From contig CAZHOI010000001.1 in NCBI GenBank assembly GCA_964534365.1, forward strand, positions 188,171 to 252,170: 64,000 bases of DNA. Direction: 5' to 3'. Below, piece by piece: positions 892 through 59,369 of this stretch. The notes under the pieces are model-generated. The model saw nothing but the letters and a program-made list of their open reading frames with translations, did not search any database and was not told the DNA's origin. The stretch's first letter is position 1; each line of letters starts with the position of its first letter. The position numbers and the translations under genes were made by a program. Source of the stretch: an uncultured Candidatus Saccharibacteria bacterium (GTDB lineage Bacteria > Patescibacteriota > Minisyncoccia > Phycocordibacterales > SW-6-46-9).

Positions 892-1003
892 TAAGTAGAT
901 AGTACTTAAAAACTAAGGATACGGCTTAAACCAAAGCTATTAGTAAGGTTGCAAGAGAGACATCGGCCTACTCTTGTGTAAAACAGGTCGGCGGATATCA
1001 TTC

Positions 1004-1076
1004 GCTGCTTTAGCTCAGTTGGTAGAGCGCGTCCATGGTAAGGACGAGGTCAACAGTTCAATTCTGTTAAGCAGCT
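1004..1076 (+). tRNA. tRNA-Thr (anticodon GGT), intact element-borne copy
   Basis: Cloverleaf: acceptor GCTGCTT/AAGCAGC, D-arm GCTC-AGTTGGTA-GAGC, anticodon stem CGTCC/GGACG, loop ATGGTAA, T-arm AACAG-TTCAATT-CTGTT; no CCA encoded. Confidence 0.85.
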
Positions 1077-1114
1077 CAACTAAAAATCACAGGCTTGTAG
1101 GTAAACAACAAGCA

Positions 1115-2005
1115 ATGACAAACATACAAACACTGGCACGCCAGTTCTACGATTACTCTACGTTTATACGTGGGTACTCACCAATAACAATAAAGCGTTA
1201 TCGGCAAGTGATTAACTTTTATTGCAAGCACTTTGACATTATAAATATCGAAGACGTAACAGAGAAAAACGTTAAGCAACTATTCGTGTTCGGTAGGTCT
1301 GAACGTAGTTGGTCAGCTAATAGCTACATTATCTATCAAAAGTCACTACTAGTGTTTTTTAGATGGTGTGTAACTAATGGTTACATGGCAACTAACTTTG
1401 CTGAACAAATCGAACTACCAAAATTAAGTAAACGGTTACCACCCAAGCTCACAAAACAGTCTGCTCAACAATTGCTACTTGTTATACAAAATTATCCTTA
1501 TGACTATCCATATCTGCGATATCGTAATCATGCAATCTTCGCTACCTTTCTATTTGCTGGGCTACGTAAGAGCGAGTTATTAAATCTTAAACTTAGTGAC
1601 GTAGACTTAGAAAATATGACGATTATGGTACGCCAAGGCAAGGGCTCTAAAGACCGTATCATTCCAATAAATTACACATTAATGCAGATACTTGAAGAAT
1701 ACTTGGTACATCGTAAGAGATTACGCAAAACATGTCCTGAATTCTTCACTTCGCTTAATAGAAATTTAGGTTTAACTGCTAGTGGACTTAAGTGGGTTGT
1801 TAAAACAGTTAGAAAGGCTACTAAAATACAGTTTACAATCCATAAGTTGCGACATACGTTTGCAACATTAATGTTAGAGGGCGGTTGCGACATCTACTCC
1901 TTGTCCAAAATGATGGGTCATAGCGACATAAAAACAACAACTATATATCTAGCGGCAAGTGCTGAGCACTTGAGGTCGCAGGTTACAAAGCACCCACTAT
2001 CATAA
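1115..2005 (+). CDS. Tyrosine recombinase/integrase (phage integrase family)
   Basis: C-terminal catalytic motifs GLRKSEL (Arg), HKLRHTFAT (H-x-x-R) and GHSDIKTTTIYL (His/Tyr); the ATG at 1115 is downstream of the tRNA, and the ORF-track start at 974 overlaps the tRNA. Confidence 0.85.
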   Translation: MTNIQTLARQFYDYSTFIRGYSPITIKRYRQVINFYCKHFDIINIEDVTEKNVKQLFVFGRSERSWSANSYIIYQKSLLVFFRWCVTNGYMATNFAEQIELPKLSKRLPPKLTKQSAQQLLLVIQNYPYDYPYLRYRNHAIFATFLFAGLRKSELLNLKLSDVDLENMTIMVRQGKGSKDRIIPINYTLMQILEEYLVHRKRLRKTCPEFFTSLNRNLGLTASGLKWVVKTVRKATKIQFTIHKLRHTFATLMLEGGCDIYSLSKMMGHSDIKTTTIYLAASAEHLRSQVTKHPLS

Positions 2006-2049
2006 AAAAGTCACTTATAATAAGATATAATTTCTTAAAGATACTTATT

Positions 2050-3153
2050 ATGAGTAAGATAACTCAGATAAATAAAGAAAACTTCAAGATAGCACGTAAA
2101 AATGCTGGTTTTTCTACTGTCGAAGCATCAAAAAAAGTTACGACATCAAAAAAAAATCTGGTTGAAGAATGGGAAAAAGGTGGCTCTACCCCAACTTGGA
2201 AGCAAGCCGAGACATTGTCGCGTATTTATAACGTTCCATTAGTATTAATGATGTCTAATAAAAGTTTATCTGTACAAAGAGAAATTCCAGACTTCAGAAG
2301 TAATATTAAAGAAATGAGTCTGCCTTTAAAGAGATATATCAACGATTTACTAAAGACTCAAAAGTGGTTAGAGAATAAAATCCAACAAGCAGACGGTTTA
2401 CAAAATTCAATTCAAGGTATTGCTTCAGCAACAGACTCTGTAGATGAATTAAGTAAAATTATTGCTGATAAACTGCAACTAGAGCTCGAATATTTTTACA
2501 GTATTGGCAGTGCGAAGAATAAATTACTTTATTTGATTGAGCGACTCGAAGATAAAGATGTATTTGTCGGCAAAACTTTTGCTCATTATGATATTCCTGT
2601 TAAAGAAATGAGAGGTATGTTTATTTCCAATAAGTATGCACCTATGATTATATTGAATAGAAAAGATGCATACACTGCGCAGTTGTTTACACTCGTCCAT
2701 GAAATCACGCATCTTTTCCGAAATACAGAAGGTGTTTCAAATATAGAACTTGCTAGGAAAGAAACTTTAAAAGAAGAGCGCTTATGTAACGAAGTTGCCG
2801 CCAAGATACTAATGCCAGAAAGTTTTTTGCCGAAAAGTAAGGTTGACTTAAATCAGTTAAAACAGTTAGCAAATAAATTGACCGTCAGTCCAATAGCAAT
2901 GTTTTATAGACTAAAAAACTCAAATAGAATTGCAGGTGAAGTAGATAAGGTGTTGGAAAAAGTAAAGCTTGAGACAAAGCAAAACCTAGAAGCAAAAGAA
3001 GCCAAGGGTTCTACAGGCGGTAACTACTATAACAATACTAAAGACTCTAATGGCACATTGCTAAACAGGTTCGTATCCTCGCTTTACTTTAATCAAGAGA
3101 TTAATTTCGTCGAAGCCTCGAATATTTTAAGACTAGCTGTAAATAAAGTATGA
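2050..3153 (+). CDS. Fusion protein: N-terminal XRE-type HTH DNA-binding domain plus C-terminal ImmA/IrrE (M78, COG2856) zinc metallopeptidase domain
   Basis: N-terminus KENFKIARKNAGFSTVEASKKV is HTH_XRE-like; HEXXH motif in FTLVHEITHLF; sits next to the integrase as ImmR/ImmA do in ICEBs1. Confidence 0.8.
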   Translation: MSKITQINKENFKIARKNAGFSTVEASKKVTTSKKNLVEEWEKGGSTPTWKQAETLSRIYNVPLVLMMSNKSLSVQREIPDFRSNIKEMSLPLKRYINDLLKTQKWLENKIQQADGLQNSIQGIASATDSVDELSKIIADKLQLELEYFYSIGSAKNKLLYLIERLEDKDVFVGKTFAHYDIPVKEMRGMFISNKYAPMIILNRKDAYTAQLFTLVHEITHLFRNTEGVSNIELARKETLKEERLCNEVAAKILMPESFLPKSKVDLNQLKQLANKLTVSPIAMFYRLKNSNRIAGEVDKVLEKVKLETKQNLEAKEAKGSTGGNYYNNTKDSNGTLLNRFVSSLYFNQEINFVEASNILRLAVNKV

Positions 3154-3647
3154 ATACCGAACAAAAAGGTTTTAAGTACGTCATAGACACTAATTACTTA
3201 ATAGGTTTTTCAATATGGCTACCAGTGACTTATAATGAAAATTTTTGGAATAATCTTGAAATTTTGGTAGAGAGTGGAAAAGTACTAATTTTAGACGTAG
3301 TAGCTAATGAGGTTACACGTAAAGGTGACCTAAAAACATGGTGCAAGAAGTTAAAACAAAAAAATCTTTTAACTTCAATTGAAAACACCGACAGAAATAG
3401 AGCTATTGAAATAAACAATCTTTACCCAATGATTGATGAAACCTCAGGAAATTCAGAGGTTGATACATACATAGTTGCTTTTTCTGAAAGGACTTCTCAC
3501 ACATTACTGAGTAGAGAGGCTCCAAGGAAATCAAGTAACGTTCCGTTCAAAATTCCAGATGTATGTAATAAATTAAATATCAACACAATACGGTGGCCTG
3601 AAGATTTTTATAGTATCTTCCCCGAGTTATTTAGTACGTGCAATTAG
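3150..3647 (+). CDS. DUF4411-family PIN-like predicted nuclease
   Basis: YVIDTNYLIGF...NFWNNLE...VLILDVVANEV...DLKTWCKK matches the DUF4411 pattern (IDTN...FW...V.eE...W); ATGA start/stop overlap with the upstream ImmA-fusion gene. Confidence 0.7.
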   Translation: MNTEQKGFKYVIDTNYLIGFSIWLPVTYNENFWNNLEILVESGKVLILDVVANEVTRKGDLKTWCKKLKQKNLLTSIENTDRNRAIEINNLYPMIDETSGNSEVDTYIVAFSERTSHTLLSREAPRKSSNVPFKIPDVCNKLNINTIRWPEDFYSIFPELFSTCN

Positions 3648-4150
3648 ATGCAAGCTTTAGCAATTTCACCATTTTGATAAACAAACAAATTTACTCGATT
3701 CCCACTTGGAATAGCTGACCTGGCACTATCTTTTAAAACTTGGCAATAACTATCAATGGCAACTTGGTTAGCTTGAGACATGACATAAGCTTCCACAATT
3801 ACACCATCATCGCCTTTCTTTACAATCACATTAGACCAACGACCTTCTGCCCAGCCGTCTAAATCTGCTTGTAGCTCATCGATATCAGCTTGAGTTATAG
3901 CAATAGTAGCAGGTGCAGTATTACTTACATTAGGCGGCAAATTAGTAGCTGATTGTGTGAGACTATCATCGCGAGAGTCGTTATTTGAAGCTAAGGTTAT
4001 TGATATAACAATCACTACAAAAATGAACCAAAGAATTGTTTTGATTGGATGTCTAGCAATATACGAGCGCTGACTTGAACCACAATTGGGACACTTAGTC
4101 GCTTTCTTGTTAATCTGCTCCTTACATTCTCTACATTCCTTAGTATCCAT
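3644..4150 (-). CDS. Zinc-ribbon membrane protein (N-terminal CxxC...CxxC, one TM helix, extracytoplasmic domain)
   Basis: MDTKECRECKEQINKKATKCPNCG followed by hydrophobic ILWFIFVVIVISITLA; convergent with the DUF4411 gene and sharing overlapping stop codons; the longer alternative start is at 4207. Confidence 0.5.
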   Translation of the reverse strand: MDTKECRECKEQINKKATKCPNCGSSQRSYIARHPIKTILWFIFVVIVISITLASNNDSRDDSLTQSATNLPPNVSNTAPATIAITQADIDELQADLDGWAEGRWSNVIVKKGDDGVIVEAYVMSQANQVAIDSYCQVLKDSARSAIPSGNRVNLFVYQNGEIAKACI

Positions 4151-4574
4151 AATTAAATTGTTAGTTAGTAACTGGTGTAAGGATTGTAGAAAGCACAAAA
4201 CCCGCAACCAGGTGAGCCGAAGCTCATACGACAGTTTCCCATCGCAACATTAGACACGCCCTGATTACGGGGTTTCTGTGTCTAATGATTTGCAACCATG
4301 CCGACTCTATCGAGGAGGGTTAGGTTGGTAGGTCTATTTTACACCAAAATTTGTCCACTATCCTTGGAACACACAAAAACTAGTTAGCAGGACATTAGCA
4401 GGATAAAGTCAATCTAGAGGACTATTTAAAAACACAAAACAGTAGAAGTAACAGAGAAAGTTTTTAATTTTATGTACCTATTCTTATATGGCAAAAATAA
4501 TAAATAATAGTAAAAAAACGGTAGGAAAACCATAAATACAGTTTTTAACTAAACTAACATGGTACATTTTACAT

Positions 4575-5240
4575 ATGAGTAAGAAACAGCCTTTGAGTAT
4601 TTACTTTGAGAAGCTAGTAGTGAAAAACCAATTTTTAGATGATTTGAAAGAGCTGAACAAATTTCATCAATCAAAACTCAGCCAATTTCAGTCAAATGAG
4701 TTACGGTCAATGTTTGCAGATATTGGTCGAGGTAGAGAATATTGGAGTAAAGTATTTATGATATGTTCTAAGTACGGATTAAATGTTAATCAATTCAAAA
4801 TCATAATATCTAAACTAGCCACTGAAAGTAATTATGATTACAAAGACGATTTAGCGCACATAAGCAACATTAAACTATTAGACTTACAATCTATAAAGAA
4901 AATAATAAAGAAAAAGTTCAATTACAGTAATGAAGCGACATATATTGAAAACGACTATCGGGCGTTTATCGGCCTAAGTAATAATACCACTAAAGCAGAG
5001 CTAATAGATTACATTGAAAAGAATTATCATTCTAAGATTAAACCTTTAATCAGTAATAAAAAAGTAAGCTTTAAAAATCTACAATTAGAAAGAAACAGTG
5101 AGTTAAAGAATTTTGTTTGGAAAAACCAAGATATGCCTCATAAGGAATTGGCTAAAAAAGTCAGTAAAAAGTTCAATAAGATTTGTACTCCTGGATATAT
5201 TTCAAAAATGCTTTCAAGATTAAGAAAACAACGTGATTGA
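4575..5240 (+). CDS. Hypothetical Lys-rich protein with C-terminal HTH-like segment
   Basis: 221-aa ORF; C-terminus HKELAKKVSKKFNKICTPGYISKMLSRLRK resembles an HTH; its stop overlaps the ATG of the downstream recombinase (ATGA). Confidence 0.55.
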   Translation: MSKKQPLSIYFEKLVVKNQFLDDLKELNKFHQSKLSQFQSNELRSMFADIGRGREYWSKVFMICSKYGLNVNQFKIIISKLATESNYDYKDDLAHISNIKLLDLQSIKKIIKKKFNYSNEATYIENDYRAFIGLSNNTTKAELIDYIEKNYHSKIKPLISNKKVSFKNLQLERNSELKNFVWKNQDMPHKELAKKVSKKFNKICTPGYISKMLSRLRKQRD

Positions 5241-6247
5241 AATATGACAAAATAAACTCCAAAAATTGTCAGTATTTCACACAATTTATTTCATATAGTT
5301 GTAGCTACCAACTTATGAAAGACAAAGACCTATATAAATTATTCGATGAATATATAAAAGAATGTACCTATGTAGCTCGCATGCGACCAGCTACCTTAAC
5401 AGGATATAAACAGGTGTTTGATACATTTATGAAGATTATGCCTGAGGTAAAAAAGGTAGATGATTTAATACCTGAGCTAATTACAGAATTCTTTACGCGC
5501 ATGCAGACAAGGACTAGACATTTAAACAACGGTCAAACCCGTTCTGGAATGAAACAATCCTCTGTTGTTACTTATAGAAGCAAGCTACATTCGTTTTTCA
5601 AATGGTTAAACACTAAAAATATCTTAGAAACCAATCCTTTTGACATGTTACCTAAGCCTGAATGGCCAGTGCATGAAGACCAAAGAGCCTTAGATACAAA
5701 AGAAGTTAATCAAATATTGGGTGCGATTTTAAATAATGACAACGACTTTATAATTTGTAGAGATACAGCACTTTTCTATACTTTACTTTACACAGGTATT
5801 AGAAAAAACGAACTAATAAACTTGAGTCTCTCTGATATTGATTTATTAAACCTGAGTTTAAGGGTTAAAGCTGAAACTTCTAAATCCAAAAGAGAACGCA
5901 TAATACCGATTAATAAGGTTTTAGCTCATAAATTAACTACGTATCTAGCAATGCGCAACAAGTTTAGTATTAAATCTGAGAAACTCTGGGTCTCTCATCA
6001 ATCAAAACAAAAACTAACTTCACATGGTCTAAAACATATAGTGGCAAAGTATGTTCATCTATCAGGCGTTAAGTTTCACCTACATCGTTTTCGACATACG
6101 TTTGCGTGTCAGCTGCATTTGGCAGGTGCATCAATTACTGAGATACAGCGTTTATTGGGCCATAAGAAAGTAACAATGACTATGTTGTATCTAAGGTCGA
6201 TAGATACAAAAGATGCTACTTGTCATATTAACAAGCTAACTTATTAG
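5237..6247 (+). CDS. Tyrosine recombinase/integrase, second copy within the element
   Basis: GIRKNEL (Arg), HRFRHTFAC (H-x-x-R), GHKKVTMTMLYL (His/Tyr); alternative start ATG at 5315. Confidence 0.8.
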   Translation: MKYDKINSKNCQYFTQFISYSCSYQLMKDKDLYKLFDEYIKECTYVARMRPATLTGYKQVFDTFMKIMPEVKKVDDLIPELITEFFTRMQTRTRHLNNGQTRSGMKQSSVVTYRSKLHSFFKWLNTKNILETNPFDMLPKPEWPVHEDQRALDTKEVNQILGAILNNDNDFIICRDTALFYTLLYTGIRKNELINLSLSDIDLLNLSLRVKAETSKSKRERIIPINKVLAHKLTTYLAMRNKFSIKSEKLWVSHQSKQKLTSHGLKHIVAKYVHLSGVKFHLHRFRHTFACQLHLAGASITEIQRLLGHKKVTMTMLYLRSIDTKDATCHINKLTY

Positions 6248-6307
6248 CAGTAAAAAGCGTGCTCGCGTTCACTTTTCTACATAAGTCAATTAGTATATAG
6301 CCATAAT

Positions 6308-6988
6308 ATGGTTATGAGTGATATTAAAAAATTACTAATTGAAACAGTTAAAGAGAATGGAATTGATATAGCATCTGATACATTAAAAGTTGTTAGTACT
6401 GTTGCTAACATTTATGGCAAAGTAAAGCGAACTCGAATTAAGATGTTCCTTAATTGCATTATAAGCTTTGTGAATGAGTTAACAGCCGAAGATAAAGAGC
6501 TTTTCATAGAATATGTAAACAGTGATGAAGGTCGGCAATTACTAACTGACTTTATAGATAGCGCATTACGCGTCTCAAATACAATACCGATGAGCGCTTT
6601 AGCATTACTTTTTGCTGACTATAACAGTATGGAATATGGCTTAAATGCCAAATACCATGGAATACGTGTACTTCCGAAGATGAATAATAAGGACGCTATT
6701 TTGTACTCTAAACTTATATCCGGAAGTTCAATATATGAAAATGCTCTAACAGAAATTGATAGTGATGAAACAGTCCCTTATGACACATATATCACATCTC
6801 TTCCCGTAAACGTACAAACTAAGAAATTGTTTATAGATATCAAAAAATTACAAAGCGAAGGCATTATATTAGATGACCCATTCAACGCTAGGATGGCAGG
6901 TGAAGAACTAACAATTGTTTACGGTCTTTCCGATAAAATGTATAGATTAGGGCGGGTGATAAGTATAGCAATTGAGATTAGTAATTAA
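6308..6988 (+). CDS. Hypothetical protein, element cargo
   Basis: 226-aa ORF with coding-like composition and no recognisable motifs. Confidence 0.5.
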   Translation: MVMSDIKKLLIETVKENGIDIASDTLKVVSTVANIYGKVKRTRIKMFLNCIISFVNELTAEDKELFIEYVNSDEGRQLLTDFIDSALRVSNTIPMSALALLFADYNSMEYGLNAKYHGIRVLPKMNNKDAILYSKLISGSSIYENALTEIDSDETVPYDTYITSLPVNVQTKKLFIDIKKLQSEGIILDDPFNARMAGEELTIVYGLSDKMYRLGRVISIAIEISN

Positions 6989-7177
6989 TTATTGATGGCA
7001 ACTTCTGTTATAATGATAGTACTGGGTTACAGCATTAATCAGTAAAAAACTAATAGCCTGTGATTGAGGACATTGGTTGTTAAATAGGTAGTTACATCTG
7101 CTTAGTTAAAACAGCTGATTTGCTCACAAAACCCTTATTTATAGCTCCCTTTTGTCGGAAAGGCCTATGTCCACTTA

Positions 7178-7222
7178 ATGGTAAGGATGAGGTCGACAGT
7201 TCAATTCTGTCAGGCAGCTCCA
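7178..7222 (+). pseudogene. 3' half of the disrupted host tRNA-Thr(GGT), from the anticodon loop through CCA
   Basis: ATGGTAA-GGATG-AGGTC-GACAG-TTCAATT-CTGTC-AGGCAGC-T-CCA; GGATG pairs CATCC and AGGCAGC pairs GCTGCCT of the 854-891 half; the ORF 7120-7317 over this region is spurious. Confidence 0.7.
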
Positions 7223-7276
7223 CTAAATTACACCACAAATATTTAAACCCGTTGGGTGACTGTCACCCTTGTCTCA

Positions 7277-45852: not shown

Positions 45853-45923
45853 AGTTTATATTATTACTTAGTATCACTATATTATATCAAATTGTACGTT
45901 TTGAACAATAGCTTAACCCCAAT

Positions 45924-45948
45924 GGTGCCAGGGACAGTTGCGTTTATC
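45924..45948 (+). repeat. Solo REP-like element GGTGCCAGGGACAGTTGCGTTTATC
   Basis: Same family as the repeats flanking the RAYT gene at 47.0-47.8 kb. Confidence 0.55.
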
Positions 45949-46012
45949 GGTACCGCCGTTTGGATCAGTAAAAAACCTGCTAGATAAGAATATTTTACTT
46001 AATTTTAAGATT

Positions 46013-46996
46013 CTACAGTTGCAGTAGCAGTACCCGCAGTAGGGTCACCTTGGTCGAAACTTCCAGATTACTTTGCAGCACCACTCGGATCAAACTGACT
46101 ACTGACGAATTTGTATCGACGTCATTTTCCGAGGTGACTTCTGCTTCATCGCTAAACTCTTCGTCTGACCTTTGATCAGAATCCTCGGTATCATCATCTT
46201 CCATATTATCCCCTTGATCTTGATTGTTGGCGTTAAAAGCACTTAACGAGGCCCCGCCACCTGAATTAGTCAAAGCTGCAGTAGCCGACACTTCGGCCGA
46301 CAGACCGCTTTCGTTATCGGCGTCGTCTTCAGTTACCAAAACATAGTAATAAATAGTGCCATCAGTTATTGCGGTGTCTTCGAAACTAGTGCCAGTAACA
46401 TTGGTGGCAATTTCGACGTATCCCGACCCACTTGTATTCGAGCGCAACACATCATAGTCTTCGGCGTCACTGGATGAACTAGCGGCCCAAGATAAATCAA
46501 TACTGTTTGAGTCAGCACTAGCTGATAAATTGGTTACGGCATCTGGTGCAATTGAATCTACTACTACGTCAGTCGTCAAAGTTGGACCCAAGGCTACGTT
46601 GGCTTCATCACTATCGCTGTATGACAAATCAATCACCGAAGCAAAATCATTAGCCGCTACGTCAATCCCACTTGAATCAGCGTCAACCACAGTCATGACT
46701 AGTTGAAACTCATCCCCCACTCCAGCATTATCATTGATTAAAACGAATGATTCCGAAGCCGAGCCGCCGTAAGCCGTTGTGTCACCTGATACTGCGGTTG
46801 TTGACGAATCATTATTAACCACTACGTCTACGGTAATATTGTCCCCAACATTTATAATTCCATTCGAATCCGCGTCATTAGTTAGCGTAATTGAGCTACT
46901 GACAATAGTTGCGCTGTCGAGAGCCGCATATGTAAAGCCGGGCAATGACATTATTCCAAATGCTATTAATGTTGATATGGTGGTAATTTTTTTCAT
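46013..46996 (-). CDS. Secreted acidic repeat protein (Ig-like/FN3-like folds, tentative)
   Basis: Signal peptide MKKITTISTLIAFGIMSLPGFTYA; S/T/D-rich. Confidence 0.5.
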   Translation of the reverse strand: MKKITTISTLIAFGIMSLPGFTYAALDSATIVSSSITLTNDADSNGIINVGDNITVDVVVNNDSSTTAVSGDTTAYGGSASESFVLINDNAGVGDEFQLVMTVVDADSSGIDVAANDFASVIDLSYSDSDEANVALGPTLTTDVVVDSIAPDAVTNLSASADSNSIDLSWAASSSSDAEDYDVLRSNTSGSGYVEIATNVTGTSFEDTAITDGTIYYYVLVTEDDADNESGLSAEVSATAALTNSGGGASLSAFNANNQDQGDNMEDDDTEDSDQRSDEEFSDEAEVTSENDVDTNSSVVSLIRVVLQSNLEVSTKVTLLRVLLLQL

Positions 46997-47048
46997 TTGT
47001 TTATTAGTTATACAAAACCATTATACCGCACTTCTAAATCCTTTATGA

Positions 47049-47113
47049 AAGGGTGCCAAAAAGGGTGCCATGCCAAAAAGGGTGCCAAAAGGGTGCCAGG
47101 GACATTTGCGTTA
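47049..47113 (+). repeat. REP-like repeat cluster, left flank of RAYT (tandem AGGGTGCCAAAA units, then GGTGCCAGGGACATTTGCGTT)
   Basis: Inverted relative to the copies at 47784-47840. Confidence 0.6.
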
Positions 47114-47749
47114 ATCTTGTTTTGTTGTCTTGTTAAATTCTTCGTGCCAATTCAACTCAGCAAATGGCTTTGATTTATTTACGCTGTGGCAAACAGCGTC
47201 GCGCTCGGATTCAGTTAAAGGTTTGTTAAGATCATTTAAATATGTGTCTGGTATGTCGATTGGTGGATTTGTTAAATATTTGTTTTTAATTCTGCTTTTC
47301 CCATTACTGCGCAGCCAGGCACTGCCCCAGCGCCAGTCTTCAGCCTTTTCACAGAGACCAGCTCGCAGAGCATTACGCTCGACATACCGCAGTGTTGTAT
47401 AGAAATAATTATCATCGCCAATTAAAAATGATTTGTACCTGCCTTGATATAAATGCCCGTAACCGACTTGATCATGCATAGATTTATACTGTTTTACATG
47501 AGTATTAGTCAGTCGGTTCATAAATTTAGATAAATCACCATTTATTCGAGGTGACAATATCAAATGCCAATGATTGGGCATAATGCAATACCCCAGTAAC
47601 CTCATATCTATCAATTCAACTGTTTCAAATAGTAAATCGTTAAAACATTTATAATCATCATAACTATTGAATATTTGTCTTCTCCCATTACTACGATTAA
47701 GTACGTGATAATAATAGTTTGCTAAATCTATTCGAGGCTGGCGTGGCAT
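47111..47749 (-). CDS. REP-associated tyrosine transposase (RAYT; IS200/IS605-like Y1 HUH transposase, COG1943)
   Basis: MPRQPRIDL...YHV.NR.N....IF...DDY..F..LL...NHWHLIL (HuH)...GHLYQGRYKS (catalytic Tyr region). Confidence 0.8.
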   Translation of the reverse strand: MPRQPRIDLANYYYHVLNRSNGRRQIFNSYDDYKCFNDLLFETVELIDMRLLGYCIMPNHWHLILSPRINGDLSKFMNRLTNTHVKQYKSMHDQVGYGHLYQGRYKSFLIGDDNYFYTTLRYVERNALRAGLCEKAEDWRWGSAWLRSNGKSRIKNKYLTNPPIDIPDTYLNDLNKPLTESERDAVCHSVNKSKPFAELNWHEEFNKTTKQD

Positions 47750-47783
47750 ATCATAATTATACCACCATATTAAACAACTAAGT

Positions 47784-47840
47784 CAAACGTCCCTGGCACC
47801 TATTATGGCACCTATTACAAACGTCCCTGGCACCTATTAC
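47784..47840 (-). repeat. REP-like repeats, right flank of RAYT (two copies of AAACGTCCCTGGCACCTATTA)
   Basis: Reverse complement GGTGCCAGGGACGTTTG matches the left-flank repeat. Confidence 0.6.
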
Positions 47841-47908
47841 GGTAGCTTTTGCAAACAAAAAACTCCCCATAAGGAGAGTTGATTGTTTAGATTAGAAGTT
47901 AAGACAAC

Positions 47909-50002: not shown

Positions 50003-50180
50003 TATTAATTGTTTTGTGTCTGACTATTAGCCAGAGCACATATTTATTGGTAATAGTAATTAGTTAACAGCATTAAAGGCACAAGCCCTTCTGAAACTAA
50101 TTACTGTTTAATCTTTTAATAAGATTTGGTAATTTGTCAGCACTTTCAGCCAACCTGTTTTTTTTGAAGTCAAGCTTCAA

Positions 50181-50489
50181 ACGCAGTGGCTGGCACCTTT
50201 GGTGCCTGTCACTTTAGTGAAGAAGCCTGTCTTTTTCCAGCCGCGCGAGGCTAGAAAGATACGGGTCGTTAAGGTAACACCGACCATAGGTCAATGTCAC
50301 CGCACTCCCCCAATCTTAATAGGTTGGCGATTCGTCGGCCAAAATCTAGTTAAAGATTAAAGCCATGGAATGACAAACCGCCAAACCAAATAGTTTTTGA
50401 CGTTTTTTCGGTATTTTGTTAACTAGCCCTGCTCGCTAAAGTGGCAGGCACCCTAGGATTTATGAATAAATCCAGATGAGCCAGCCACT
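50181..50489. repeat. Long-range imperfect inverted repeat (~37-nt arms) enclosing ~215 bp; MITE-like element or structured ncRNA
   Basis: 50181-50217 GCAGTGGCTGGCACCTTTGGTGCCTGTCACTTTAGTG is complementary to 50432-50450 plus 50478-50489; a minus-strand terminator-like hairpin and T-run lie at 50152-50178. Confidence 0.5.
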
Positions 50490-51031
50490 GCGCTCGCTAT
50501 ATAGCCAATTAAACCTTTGTCAAAGAGCTAACTGGTTTGGCGGCAGATTAATATCTGTAGCACCAACCAATTAAGGATTGGATCAATCTGATCCGGTTAG
50601 GGAGACCAATAGTTGATATTAGTCCCCCTATGCGATTCAGTTGTTTTCTTTAGTTATTTATCTTTAGTTATTTATTGGGCCTATTTTGCTGGGCCGATAC
50701 TAGTGGTGACGAGAATAGATAGATTTGATTACGTTGACAAAATTAATAATTCGTTATTTTAACTATATGATATTTTGTACAATTTGGCAAAGTTCAGGAC
50801 TTGATTAGATTAAATGCTTGATCCAATAATAGTCAGCCGAACTACCAATACCTATAGATTACCTTATCAACAGCCAAACATTAGTTAGCTGGTCTAACCC
50901 TGGGGATAATTGAGTTATTAATTCAAGGCTGATATCAAATAATAACTCAGTAATTAGGAAAAACTAGGAAATCAGGGCATTTTAGCAATATCAATAATCA
51001 AATATAGAGTTTTCTTAAAGGGATATTATTA

Positions 51032-58455: not shown

Positions 58456-58474
58456 AACTCGCCGATTGTAACAT

Positions 58475-58551
58475 GTCATCCGTCATCCGTCATCCGTCAT
58501 CCGTCATCCGTCATCTGTCATCCGTCATCTGTCATCTGTCATCTGTCATCT
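58475..58551. repeat. Heptanucleotide tandem repeat (GTCATCC/GTCATCT) x 11
   Basis: Eleven perfect 7-mer units read directly from the sequence, between the tatD stop and the rpsF start. Confidence 0.9.
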
Positions 58552-58553
58552 GT

Positions 58554-59369
58554 TTAAAGATTGAACACTCGTCTGGCGTTGGCCACCAACTGCATTTGAA
58601 AGCTTTGCAGTGATTTTTCACCTCTAATCATGAATAAAGCTTTGATGACTTCATCAACATATAGGGGCGAGTTTTGTTTACCTCTATGAGGTACAGGCGC
58701 AGCATAAGGGGCGTCAGTTTCTGCATGAATCATATCTGATGGAATATATTTAATAACTTGATCATAATCACGAGCAAACGTAATTGGACCATCAAATGAC
58801 AAGGTAAAATTAAGATCCAAAAAACGCTTGGCTATTTCCCGATTACCGACAAAAAAATGCACGTTACCTGGCCATTCCGGTAGCTCGTCCCTCCGTTGGG
58901 ATAAAATTTCAATCATATCCAGATACGCATTCATGGTACCTTTGGAAGGGCGACCATGTAGCATTAGTGGTAACTGAAACTCTGCGGCTAATTCAATTTG
59001 TTTCCTTAAGTTATTTACTTGGACATCGTAAACTCTATCACGTGGCGTTCGATAGTAATCCAGTCCACACTCCCCAATTGCTATAATCTTTTTTTTAGCC
59101 AAATGGTGCCTGAGGCCTCCTGAGTTAACACCGAGTATACTTCGATATATCGCAGTATCAAAGTCATTTAATTCAGTCGGGTGCTGACCGATAGTGGCCC
59201 ATATATTTTCATGCTTATTAGCCAACTCCACCGCAGCTCGCGAAGTTTCAATATTAGTCCCGACAACAATTGTTCCCCAATTTCGATTTTCTAATTCCTG
59301 AATCACCTCTACTCGAGAATTATCAAAGTCTGCAAACTGCAAATGACAATGGATGTCAATTACCTTCAT
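58554..59369 (-). CDS. tatD: TatD-family metal-dependent hydrolase/DNase
   Basis: MKVIDIHCHL N-terminal motif, GECGLDY, His/Asp metal ligands. Confidence 0.85.
   Translation of the reverse strand: MKVIDIHCHLQFADFDNSRVEVIQELENRNWGTIVVGTNIETSRAAVELANKHENIWATIGQHPTELNDFDTAIYRSILGVNSGGLRHHLAKKKIIAIGECGLDYYRTPRDRVYDVQVNNLRKQIELAAEFQLPLMLHGRPSKGTMNAYLDMIEILSQRRDELPEWPGNVHFFVGNREIAKRFLDLNFTLSFDGPITFARDYDQVIKYIPSDMIHAETDAPYAAPVPHRGKQNSPLYVDEVIKALFMIRGEKSLQSFQMQLVANARRVFNL

Follow-up and report, generated by a model that had tools for sequence, protein, structure and literature searches.

A 64 kb stretch of contig CAZHOI010000001.1 (assembly GCA_964534365.1), referred to here as the window, was found to contain a gene for a 212-aa HUH/Y1 nuclease flanked on both sides by inverted copies of a short repeat. 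The locus is of the known TIRtron/TIRYT kind, found newly in Patescibacteria, and is neither a REPtron nor an active insertion sequence (IS). In its specific form, this reading holds that a single-copy, chromosomally fixed TIRYT gene of the TnpA-Y1 subclass 2.1 type lies between cognate terminal inverted repeats (TIRs) in a Parcubacteria-like host, and it is regarded as likely, with good confidence. The names TIRtron and TIRYT were introduced for genes resembling those of the REP-associated tyrosine transposases (RAYTs) which are located between terminal inverted repeats that are not repetitive extragenic palindromes (REPs; Di Nocera, De Gregorio and Rocco, 2013, BMC Genomics 14:522, PMC3733652). 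With regard to the host, its RecA protein has its nearest named relatives among Parcubacteria, Paceibacterota and Minisyncoccota (72–75% identity), with placement in the Patescibacteria.

The Y1 gene and its protein

The open reading frame (ORF) of the gene had been picked out in an earlier note on this DNA, made from the sequence alone, and it was confirmed on the minus strand with a product of 212 aa (Table 1). The assignment of this product in that note to the Y1 HUH transposases was borne out by a profile search, with Pfam Y1_Tnp matched at 65 bits against a cut-off of 23. Its further assignment to the RAYT type held in part. The best NCBIfam model was indeed RAYT (NF047646), placing the protein on the RAYT-like branch of the HUH/Y1 enzymes, but the score of 64.3 bits is under the 80-bit equivalog cut-off of that model. 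The same was seen in all 46 aligned members of the family, for each of which RAYT was the best NCBIfam model with a score likewise under the cut-off, the match to IS200 being much weaker.

The HUH motif NHWH is found at residues 59–62 (H60 and H62), the W-motif region LYQGRYKS at residues 100–107 and the catalytic tyrosine at Y122 within RYVERNA. A W139-x-W141-x-S143 tail follows, which precedes a helical C-terminal extension of 70 aa. In the alignment of 46 sequences, conservation spans the whole length of the protein, with H60 and H62 of NHWH, the GHLYQGRYKSF block, Y122, E124 and N126 of RYVERNA, and W139, W141 and S143 being invariant. The invariance of the HUH histidines and the catalytic tyrosine in such diverse members argues for retained nuclease chemistry. 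The sequence GHLYQGRYKS (residues 98–107), cited in the earlier note as a mark of the transposase, belongs to the W-motif region; its tyrosines do not align with the catalytic tyrosine of ISDra2 TnpA, with which it is Y122 that aligned when the family profile was compared (E = 3e-5).

An AlphaFold (AF2) model of the protein with a pLDDT of 87 was submitted to Foldseek, for which the top structural match was TnpA-REP of Escherichia coli (4ER8, E = 7e-8), ahead of the IS200/IS605 transposases, with a sequence identity of approximately 14%. A search of solved structures with the single sequence returned nothing relevant, the family profile being required. No second or decayed Y1 gene was detected in the window or in its 1 kb non-coding gap (see below), the gene being single.

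Terminal repeats of the element

Both flanks of the gene carry inverted copies of GGTGCCAGGGAC(A/G)(T/G)TTG. The end upstream of the gene, at the higher coordinates, is called the left end here and that at its stop codon the right end. A search with GGTGCCAGGGACRTTTG, allowing up to three mismatches, gave four copies in the window, at 45924 and 47092 on the plus strand and at 47784 and 47818 on the minus strand. The number expected from shuffled sequence is 0.13, and none of 100 shuffles reached four. The arms at 47092–47113 and 47779–47800 are 22 nt long and 86% complementary, the two ends being inverted copies of one sequence of 17–22 nt.

Three features of these flanks listed in the earlier note were recovered. 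The tandem units at the lower-coordinate side correspond to four GGTGCCA half-units within 47048–47098, spaced by 12, 17 and 11 nt, with the last running into GGTGCCAGGGACATTTGCGTTA. The pair of reverse-complement copies on the other side corresponds to two full inverted copies, one in each unit of a 34-nt direct repeat (47775–47808 and 47809–47842). The solo copy at 45924, within 45921–45948, has 89% identity to the copy at 47089–47116; it has the orientation of a right end and is located 1.17 kb further out, past an unrelated 327-aa gene.

A position-weight matrix was built from the termini of the family and scanned over the window. This detected no repeat copies outside a neighbourhood of 4.6 kb (45.9–50.5 kb), within which four canonical and four divergent copies were counted, including tandem copies and inverted dimers; no copy in the window is more than approximately 3 kb from the Y1 gene. 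Two moderate matches at 59101 and 61099, both inside long ORFs, were dismissed as chance. A motif scan of species-representative genomes, which do not include the source genome, gave 65 single matches in unrelated taxa compared with approximately 140 estimated by chance. A similar scan of metagenomes gave chance matches only among the matches listed, with none from the source genome or a relative among the loci fetched.

Conservation of the locus among relatives

The identical protein is encoded in seven contigs from several samples, with a single shared context in all seven, and a Kaiserbacteria protein of the family (P0064) was found in one context in 24 of the 24 contigs read. To compare more divergent members, the Y1 proteins of loci L071, L070 and L072 were examined, which are 69, 67 and 55% identical to that of the window, respectively. 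In each of these loci the gene comes after an orthologue of the 697-aa peptidoglycan-binding surface protein that precedes it in the window. The orthologues of this neighbour are 35–42% identical, compared with 55–69% for the Y1 protein in the shared slot, so that the Y1 gene is fixed at this position and is the better conserved of the two. This conserved synteny points to a fixed, domesticated and vertically inherited gene. The family is a large one in Patescibacteria, with approximately 6,800 clusters at E ≤1e-5.

The arrangement of the repeats is also shared. The inverted repeat between upstream and downstream flanks scored above every shuffle in 11 of 13 independent loci. Across these 11, the distance from the start of the left copy (the nearest one, if duplicated) to the ATG is 37–118 nt, and the right copy has its inner edge at −17 to +58 nt from the stop codon. 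This two-ended layout was seen in 10 of 12 relatives, at protein identities down to 25–36%, three of them being genes of proteobacterial plasmids. Extra repeat copies in the relatives were found only within approximately 3 kb of the gene. The possibility that the right end is separated from the extra downstream copy by a conserved passenger gene was considered and rejected, the downstream genes being unrelated among the relatives.

The repeat cores found among the loci are GGTGCCAG, GGTGTCAG, GGGGTCAG, GGGGACAG and GGGTCAG. A GGGG(T/A)CAG core is present in most relatives, with GGTGCCAG of the window representing a clade variant, and an exact fit to GGGGWSAS at the equivalent position was found in seven loci (L074, L205, L206, L207, L209, L211 and L212). 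Both ends of one element share lineage-specific sequence, indicating concerted ends: in L070 a change of GGA to CCA is seen at both ends, and in L207 the two ends are identical over 29 of 29 nt. The clade of the window (P0001–P0018) has GGTG[CT]CAG termini in place of GGGG[TA]CAG and is without the AT-hook-like GRPK tail that 95 of the 120 top homologues possess. Loss of the tail and change of the core appear as one phylogenetic event, which is taken as a lead only.

No member of the close family was found in plasmids or phages. Distant relatives were detected in 14 of 72,556 plasmid records, all with identities of 36% or less. Those of Legionella, Rhodospirillum and Iodobacter are flanked by perfect inverted repeats of 19–21 nt (with GGGTCAG or GGGGTCAG) at the same positions, two of the three with extra repeat copies nearby. 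Comparison of the family profile with the TIR-flanked plasmid protein of R. rubrum using hhalign gave a probability of 99.7% (E = 3e-25) over 217 columns, with the C-terminal extension included. The Legionella relative carries a Bac_DnaA_C-like helix-turn-helix (HTH) domain.

Comparison with described Y1 systems

In the original description, many TIRs share the sequence GGGGWSAS, which is common and not obligatory, are found at similar distances from the gene and in some cases overlap its 3′ end; some also form small repeat families, dimers or clusters (Di Nocera et al., 2013). Quentin et al. (2018, PMC6006769) later placed most TIRYTs in subclass 2.1 of TnpA-Y1 and found no REPs for it. The proteins of this subclass have the motifs NHVH or NH[YF]H, W[EQ] or FQ, and YIELNP or Y[IV]HLNP, followed by an SS tail and a C-terminal extension, with a median length of 238 aa, and members of subgroup 2.1.2 carry HTH domains (Quentin et al., 2018). 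The equivalent group of Bertels et al. (2017, PMC5581495) is RAYT Group 1, whose flanking 16-mers occur approximately 12 times per replicon. They report that it resembles ISs more closely than do the other domesticated groups, duplicates amounting to 6.3% and members on plasmids to 1.2%.

The locus in the window resembles these elements in several respects. It consists of a RAYT-like Y1 gene between terminal inverted repeats which are not REPs and keep a stereotyped distance from it, with the right repeat sometimes reaching over the 3′ end of the gene. The core is of the GGGGWSAS type in the wider sense, with six of the eight positions fitted in the window. The repeats form small local families in dimers or clusters and the copy number of the gene is low. 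The protein has an N-H-x-H HUH motif, [WFY]Q-GR-[YF]-K, Y-[IV]-x-x-N and a W-x-W-[SG]-S tail, and there is end-to-end homology to a canonical plasmid member, as described above. To our knowledge, TIRYTs are the largest group of RAYTs, and we know of no member with a demonstrated activity or function.

Differences were also noted. The host belongs to the Patescibacteria, a group unsampled in those surveys, and in the literature searched nothing was found that links TIRYT-type enzymes with it. Variant residues occur at each motif of the subclass 2.1 signature: NHWH, YQ and YVERNA are present in the window where NH[VYF]H, [WF][EQ] and Y[IV]xLNP are published, WGS is found in place of the SS tail and the length is 212 aa rather than approximately 238 aa. 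The protein also has no HTH domain and, in common with its clade, no basic GRPK tail. Given the published arrangement and the homology to subclass 2.1, the locus was filed as a TIRtron with variant signature residues and the variant core GGTGCCAG.

With the TnpA proteins of the IS200/IS605 family, such as those of IS608 and ISDra2, the window protein has the HUH/Y1 catalytic core in common. The element differs from this family in that it has no subterminal hairpins and no tnpB partner, and no TnpB/OrfB-type gene was present among the neighbours in the contigs with the identical protein. Its tyrosine motif is Y---N (Y122-VER-N) instead of Y---Q, its protein has a C-terminal extension of 70–90 aa, and its gene is present in a single copy in conserved synteny, where IS200/IS605 elements are multi-copy.

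Several points weigh against the TIRtron reading. Two close relatives, L072 and L073, have upstream copies with no detectable right-end partner, which shows that not every locus has the two-ended layout. The core GGTGCCAG fits only six of the eight positions of GGGGWSAS. The count of repeat copies covers the 64 kb window. All characterised Y1 transposases depend on a hairpin for recognition, and this repeat has none; recognition may therefore differ, for example by binding of double-stranded DNA through the C-terminal extension. Cleavage at the repeats by a TIRYT is proposed by analogy only. Finally, the overlap of a promoter with the left-end TIR (see below) was read from the sequence and was not called by the consensus scan, as its 19-nt spacer exceeds 18 nt.

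Alternative explanations

The earlier note had interpreted the locus as a REPtron, in which a canonical RAYT mobilises a genome-wide family of hairpin-forming REPs or REPINs that includes the flanking repeats. Part of that claim stands, namely the RAYT-like HUH/Y1 protein with 4ER8 as its top fold match, the inverted repeats on both flanks and at least one extra copy nearby, and the two inverted dimers of divergent copies with strong hairpin structure at 50170–50505 are also somewhat REPIN-like. As in the REPtrons of E. coli (YafM, PDB 4ER8) and the Pseudomonas RAYTs, a single-copy, vertically inherited gene for a Y1 fold is accompanied by cognate inverted flanking repeats with extra copies elsewhere. 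The repeats themselves, though, do not behave as REPs. No copy or array in the window folds better than shuffles as single-stranded DNA on either strand (z = +0.9 to +1.8), a separate fold check of the left- and right-end copies gave z values of approximately 0, and hairpin potential across the family is weak and inconsistent. The GT[AG]G tag (GTAG or GTGG) is absent from every copy in the window, where there is no hairpin for such a tag to foot. The copies are non-palindromic, few and local, where those of REPtrons number tens to hundreds and are dispersed; in the window they do not extend beyond the 4.6 kb neighbourhood, and in four 20 kb loci of relatives none was farther than approximately 3 kb from the gene. 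Together with a protein that is only approximately 14% identical to 4ER8 and under the NCBIfam RAYT cut-off, and family motifs and end-to-end homology that fit the subclass in which no REPs were found (PMC6006769), this makes a REPtron very unlikely.

That the locus is an autonomous IS, a minimal element of approximately 0.71–0.74 kb with terminal inverted repeats and a Y1 transposase that is still transposing as a unit, would agree with its compact IS-like layout, in which a promoter lies in the left end and the right end falls on the stop codon, with the IS-like character of Group 1 RAYTs (Bertels et al., 2017) and with the distant relatives on plasmids. Such an element would not be expected in one and the same slot, beside orthologues of a single neighbour, in four lineages that share only 55–69% identity in the Y1 protein, nor would it be expected to be better conserved than that neighbour. 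One context per protein was seen in 7 and in 24 contigs, the window holds a single gene copy with no pseudocopy, and no target-site duplication is visible at the ends. Activity as an IS is considered unlikely. It is more doubtful still that the repeats are primarily operators or iterons, bound as double-stranded DNA by the Y1 protein or another factor that locally controls its own expression and that of the neighbouring genes for surface proteins, cleavage playing no part. For such a role speak the recurrence of GGTGCCA half-units at about one helical turn (11–12 nt) in both flanks, the position of the left repeat over the −35 region, the copies bracketing the 697-aa and 327-aa secreted-protein genes, the GRPK tail of most relatives and the HTH domains in subclass 2.1.2. 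It is opposed by the invariant HUH histidines and catalytic tyrosine in 46 diverse members, by loss of the GRPK tail in the window clade and by downstream genes that are not conserved between relatives.

There is also an outside chance that the Patescibacteria enzyme is a fully domesticated host factor rather than a mobiliser of repeats, serving in local processing of single-stranded DNA or as a regulatory switch for surface-protein expression. Recognition could then proceed by linear or paired inverted repeats with no hairpin, a mode undescribed for any Y1 enzyme. This suggestion is made because the copies stay within a few kb and bracket the genes for the 697-aa peptidoglycan-binding protein and the 327-aa secreted acidic protein, because the long leader region of the 697-aa gene contains a 336-nt structure (z = −9.8) built from four divergent copies, and because the core change from GGGG[TA]CAG to GGTG[CT]CAG coincided with loss of the GRPK tail.

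Probable promoter and proposed mechanism of the element

A −35-like hexamer, TTGACT (47781–47786), forms the inner end of the proximal left-end TIR. The extended −10-like element TGGTATAAT is located 19 nt downstream of it, ending 6 nt short of the ATG, and a Shine-Dalgarno sequence is absent. Together these are a probable promoter of a leaderless mRNA, as judged from the sequence. A −10-like hexamer 6–7 nt before the ATG with no Shine-Dalgarno sequence was also found in L070, L071 and L072, which suggests that the Y1 genes of this clade have leaderless mRNAs. It was also observed that in L071 (2440–2645) the upstream TIR lies inside a tandem duplicated unit of approximately 100 nt, each unit with a terminator-like hairpin and a promoter-like TATACT.

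By analogy with TnpA-REP of E. coli and the TnpA proteins of IS608 and ISDra2, the TIRYT would recognise the repeat and would cleave and rejoin one DNA strand at or beside it, through a 5′-phosphotyrosine intermediate on Y122 with the metal held by H60 and H62. As the ends are inverted, the enzyme could recognise either the same sequence on opposite strands or a pairing between the two ends in single-stranded DNA, such as that of the lagging-strand template. Occasional processing of this kind would duplicate or relocate repeat copies nearby, and may have given rise to the tandem left-end copies, the arrays of half-units, the solo right-end copy and the inverted dimers at 50.2–50.5 kb. Binding of the enzyme would also autoregulate its expression, since the −35 region of the probable promoter is overlapped by the left-end repeat. 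These steps are held with much lower confidence than the classification, since no TIRYT has been characterised biochemically.

A structured element upstream of the 697-aa gene

The divergent repeat copies are located in a non-coding gap of approximately 1 kb (50003–51031) upstream of the 697-aa gene. Within this gap, an element of 336 nt was predicted to fold with −150 kcal/mol (z = −9.8 for the gene-sense strand and −7.3 for the other strand). Its two nested closing helices consist of the four divergent TIR-like copies in two inverted pairs, one formed by approximately 50480–50492 with 50181–50197 and the other by 50436–50452 with 50201–50215. One of these copies, AGGTGCCAGCCACTG, matches the right end of L070 exactly over 15 nt. 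The element contains no Y1 remnant and matched no Rfam family, with only sub-threshold matches to a miRNA-precursor model. It probably represents TIRs in a dimer or cluster such as those described by Di Nocera et al. (2013), for which we infer a link to the TIRtron. A conserved non-coding RNA in the gap was considered and rejected, as there is no Rfam family and the syntenic gaps of L072 and L211 have no sequence similarity to it. In L211 the syntenic gap, upstream of a PG_binding_1 gene, contains a series of near-perfect hairpins (1530–1960, z = −7.8) dissimilar to the gap of the window. It seems that palindromic elements build up in the long leaders of these surface-protein genes.

Table 1. 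Features of the probable TIRtron and its surroundings, in coordinates of the window.
Feature	Position	Strand	Basis or remark
TIRYT gene, RAYT-like HUH/Y1 nuclease, 212 aa	47111..47749	-	Profile, alignment, predicted structure
Extended −10-like element TGGTATAAT	47756..47764	-	Read from sequence
Proximal left-end TIR (upstream of gene), GGTGCCAGGGACGTTTGACTTA	47779..47800	-	Motif and inverted-repeat search
Isolated GGTGCCA half-unit between the two left-end copies	47806..47812	-	Motif scan
Second, distal left-end TIR copy, part of 34-nt direct repeat	47818..47834	-	Motif and repeat search
Intrinsic terminator of upstream 697-aa gene, outer limit of left-end region	47861..47880	-	Terminator scan
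Right-end TIR, inverted partner, GGTGCCAGGGACATTTGCGTTA	47092..47113	+	Overlaps stop codon 47111–47113
Four GGTGCCA half-units (47052, 47064, 47081, 47092), outside right-end TIR	47048..47098	+	Repeat search
Solo right-end-type TIR copy, GGTGCCAGGGACAGTTGCGTTTATC	45921..45948	+	Motif and repeat search
Highly structured non-coding element, 336 nt	50170..50505	-	Folding and repeat comparison

Other features of the window

Near the start of the window, a probable integrated element of approximately 6 kb (974–7227) was found at a tRNA-Thr gene, the 3′ half of which (1035–1084) is repeated at 7178–7227 with 90% identity. The GC content of this region falls to 0.32–0.34 and its genes include two for Phage_integrase proteins (974–2005 and 5237–6247) and a pair encoding an IrrE-like Peptidase_M78 protein and a DUF4411 protein. 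A match to the LOOT RNA (RF03000) was detected at 4213–4326 on the minus strand inside this putative integrated element, with 64.6 bits against a gathering score of 46.4. A direct repeat of 48 nt (844–891 and 994–1041, 90% identity) covers the 5′ half of the tRNA-Thr, with its first copy 150 nt upstream of the called tRNA. This could represent an att remnant, or else a second or degenerate copy of the tRNA. Elsewhere, a tandem 7-nt repeat (CGTCATC/TGTCATC) of approximately 13 units was observed at 58460–58553, at the boundary of the ORF 58554–59369.

Significance

For annotation, the locus illustrates that a Y1 gene with inverted flanking repeats is not automatically a REPtron. With a protein of 212 aa and ends of 17–22 nt that form no hairpin, and with both the catalytic residues and the paired ends kept, it provides a compact test case in which it can be asked how a Y1 HUH enzyme recognises DNA that has no stem-loop. 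It also bears on the role of domesticated Y1 nucleases in very small genomes.

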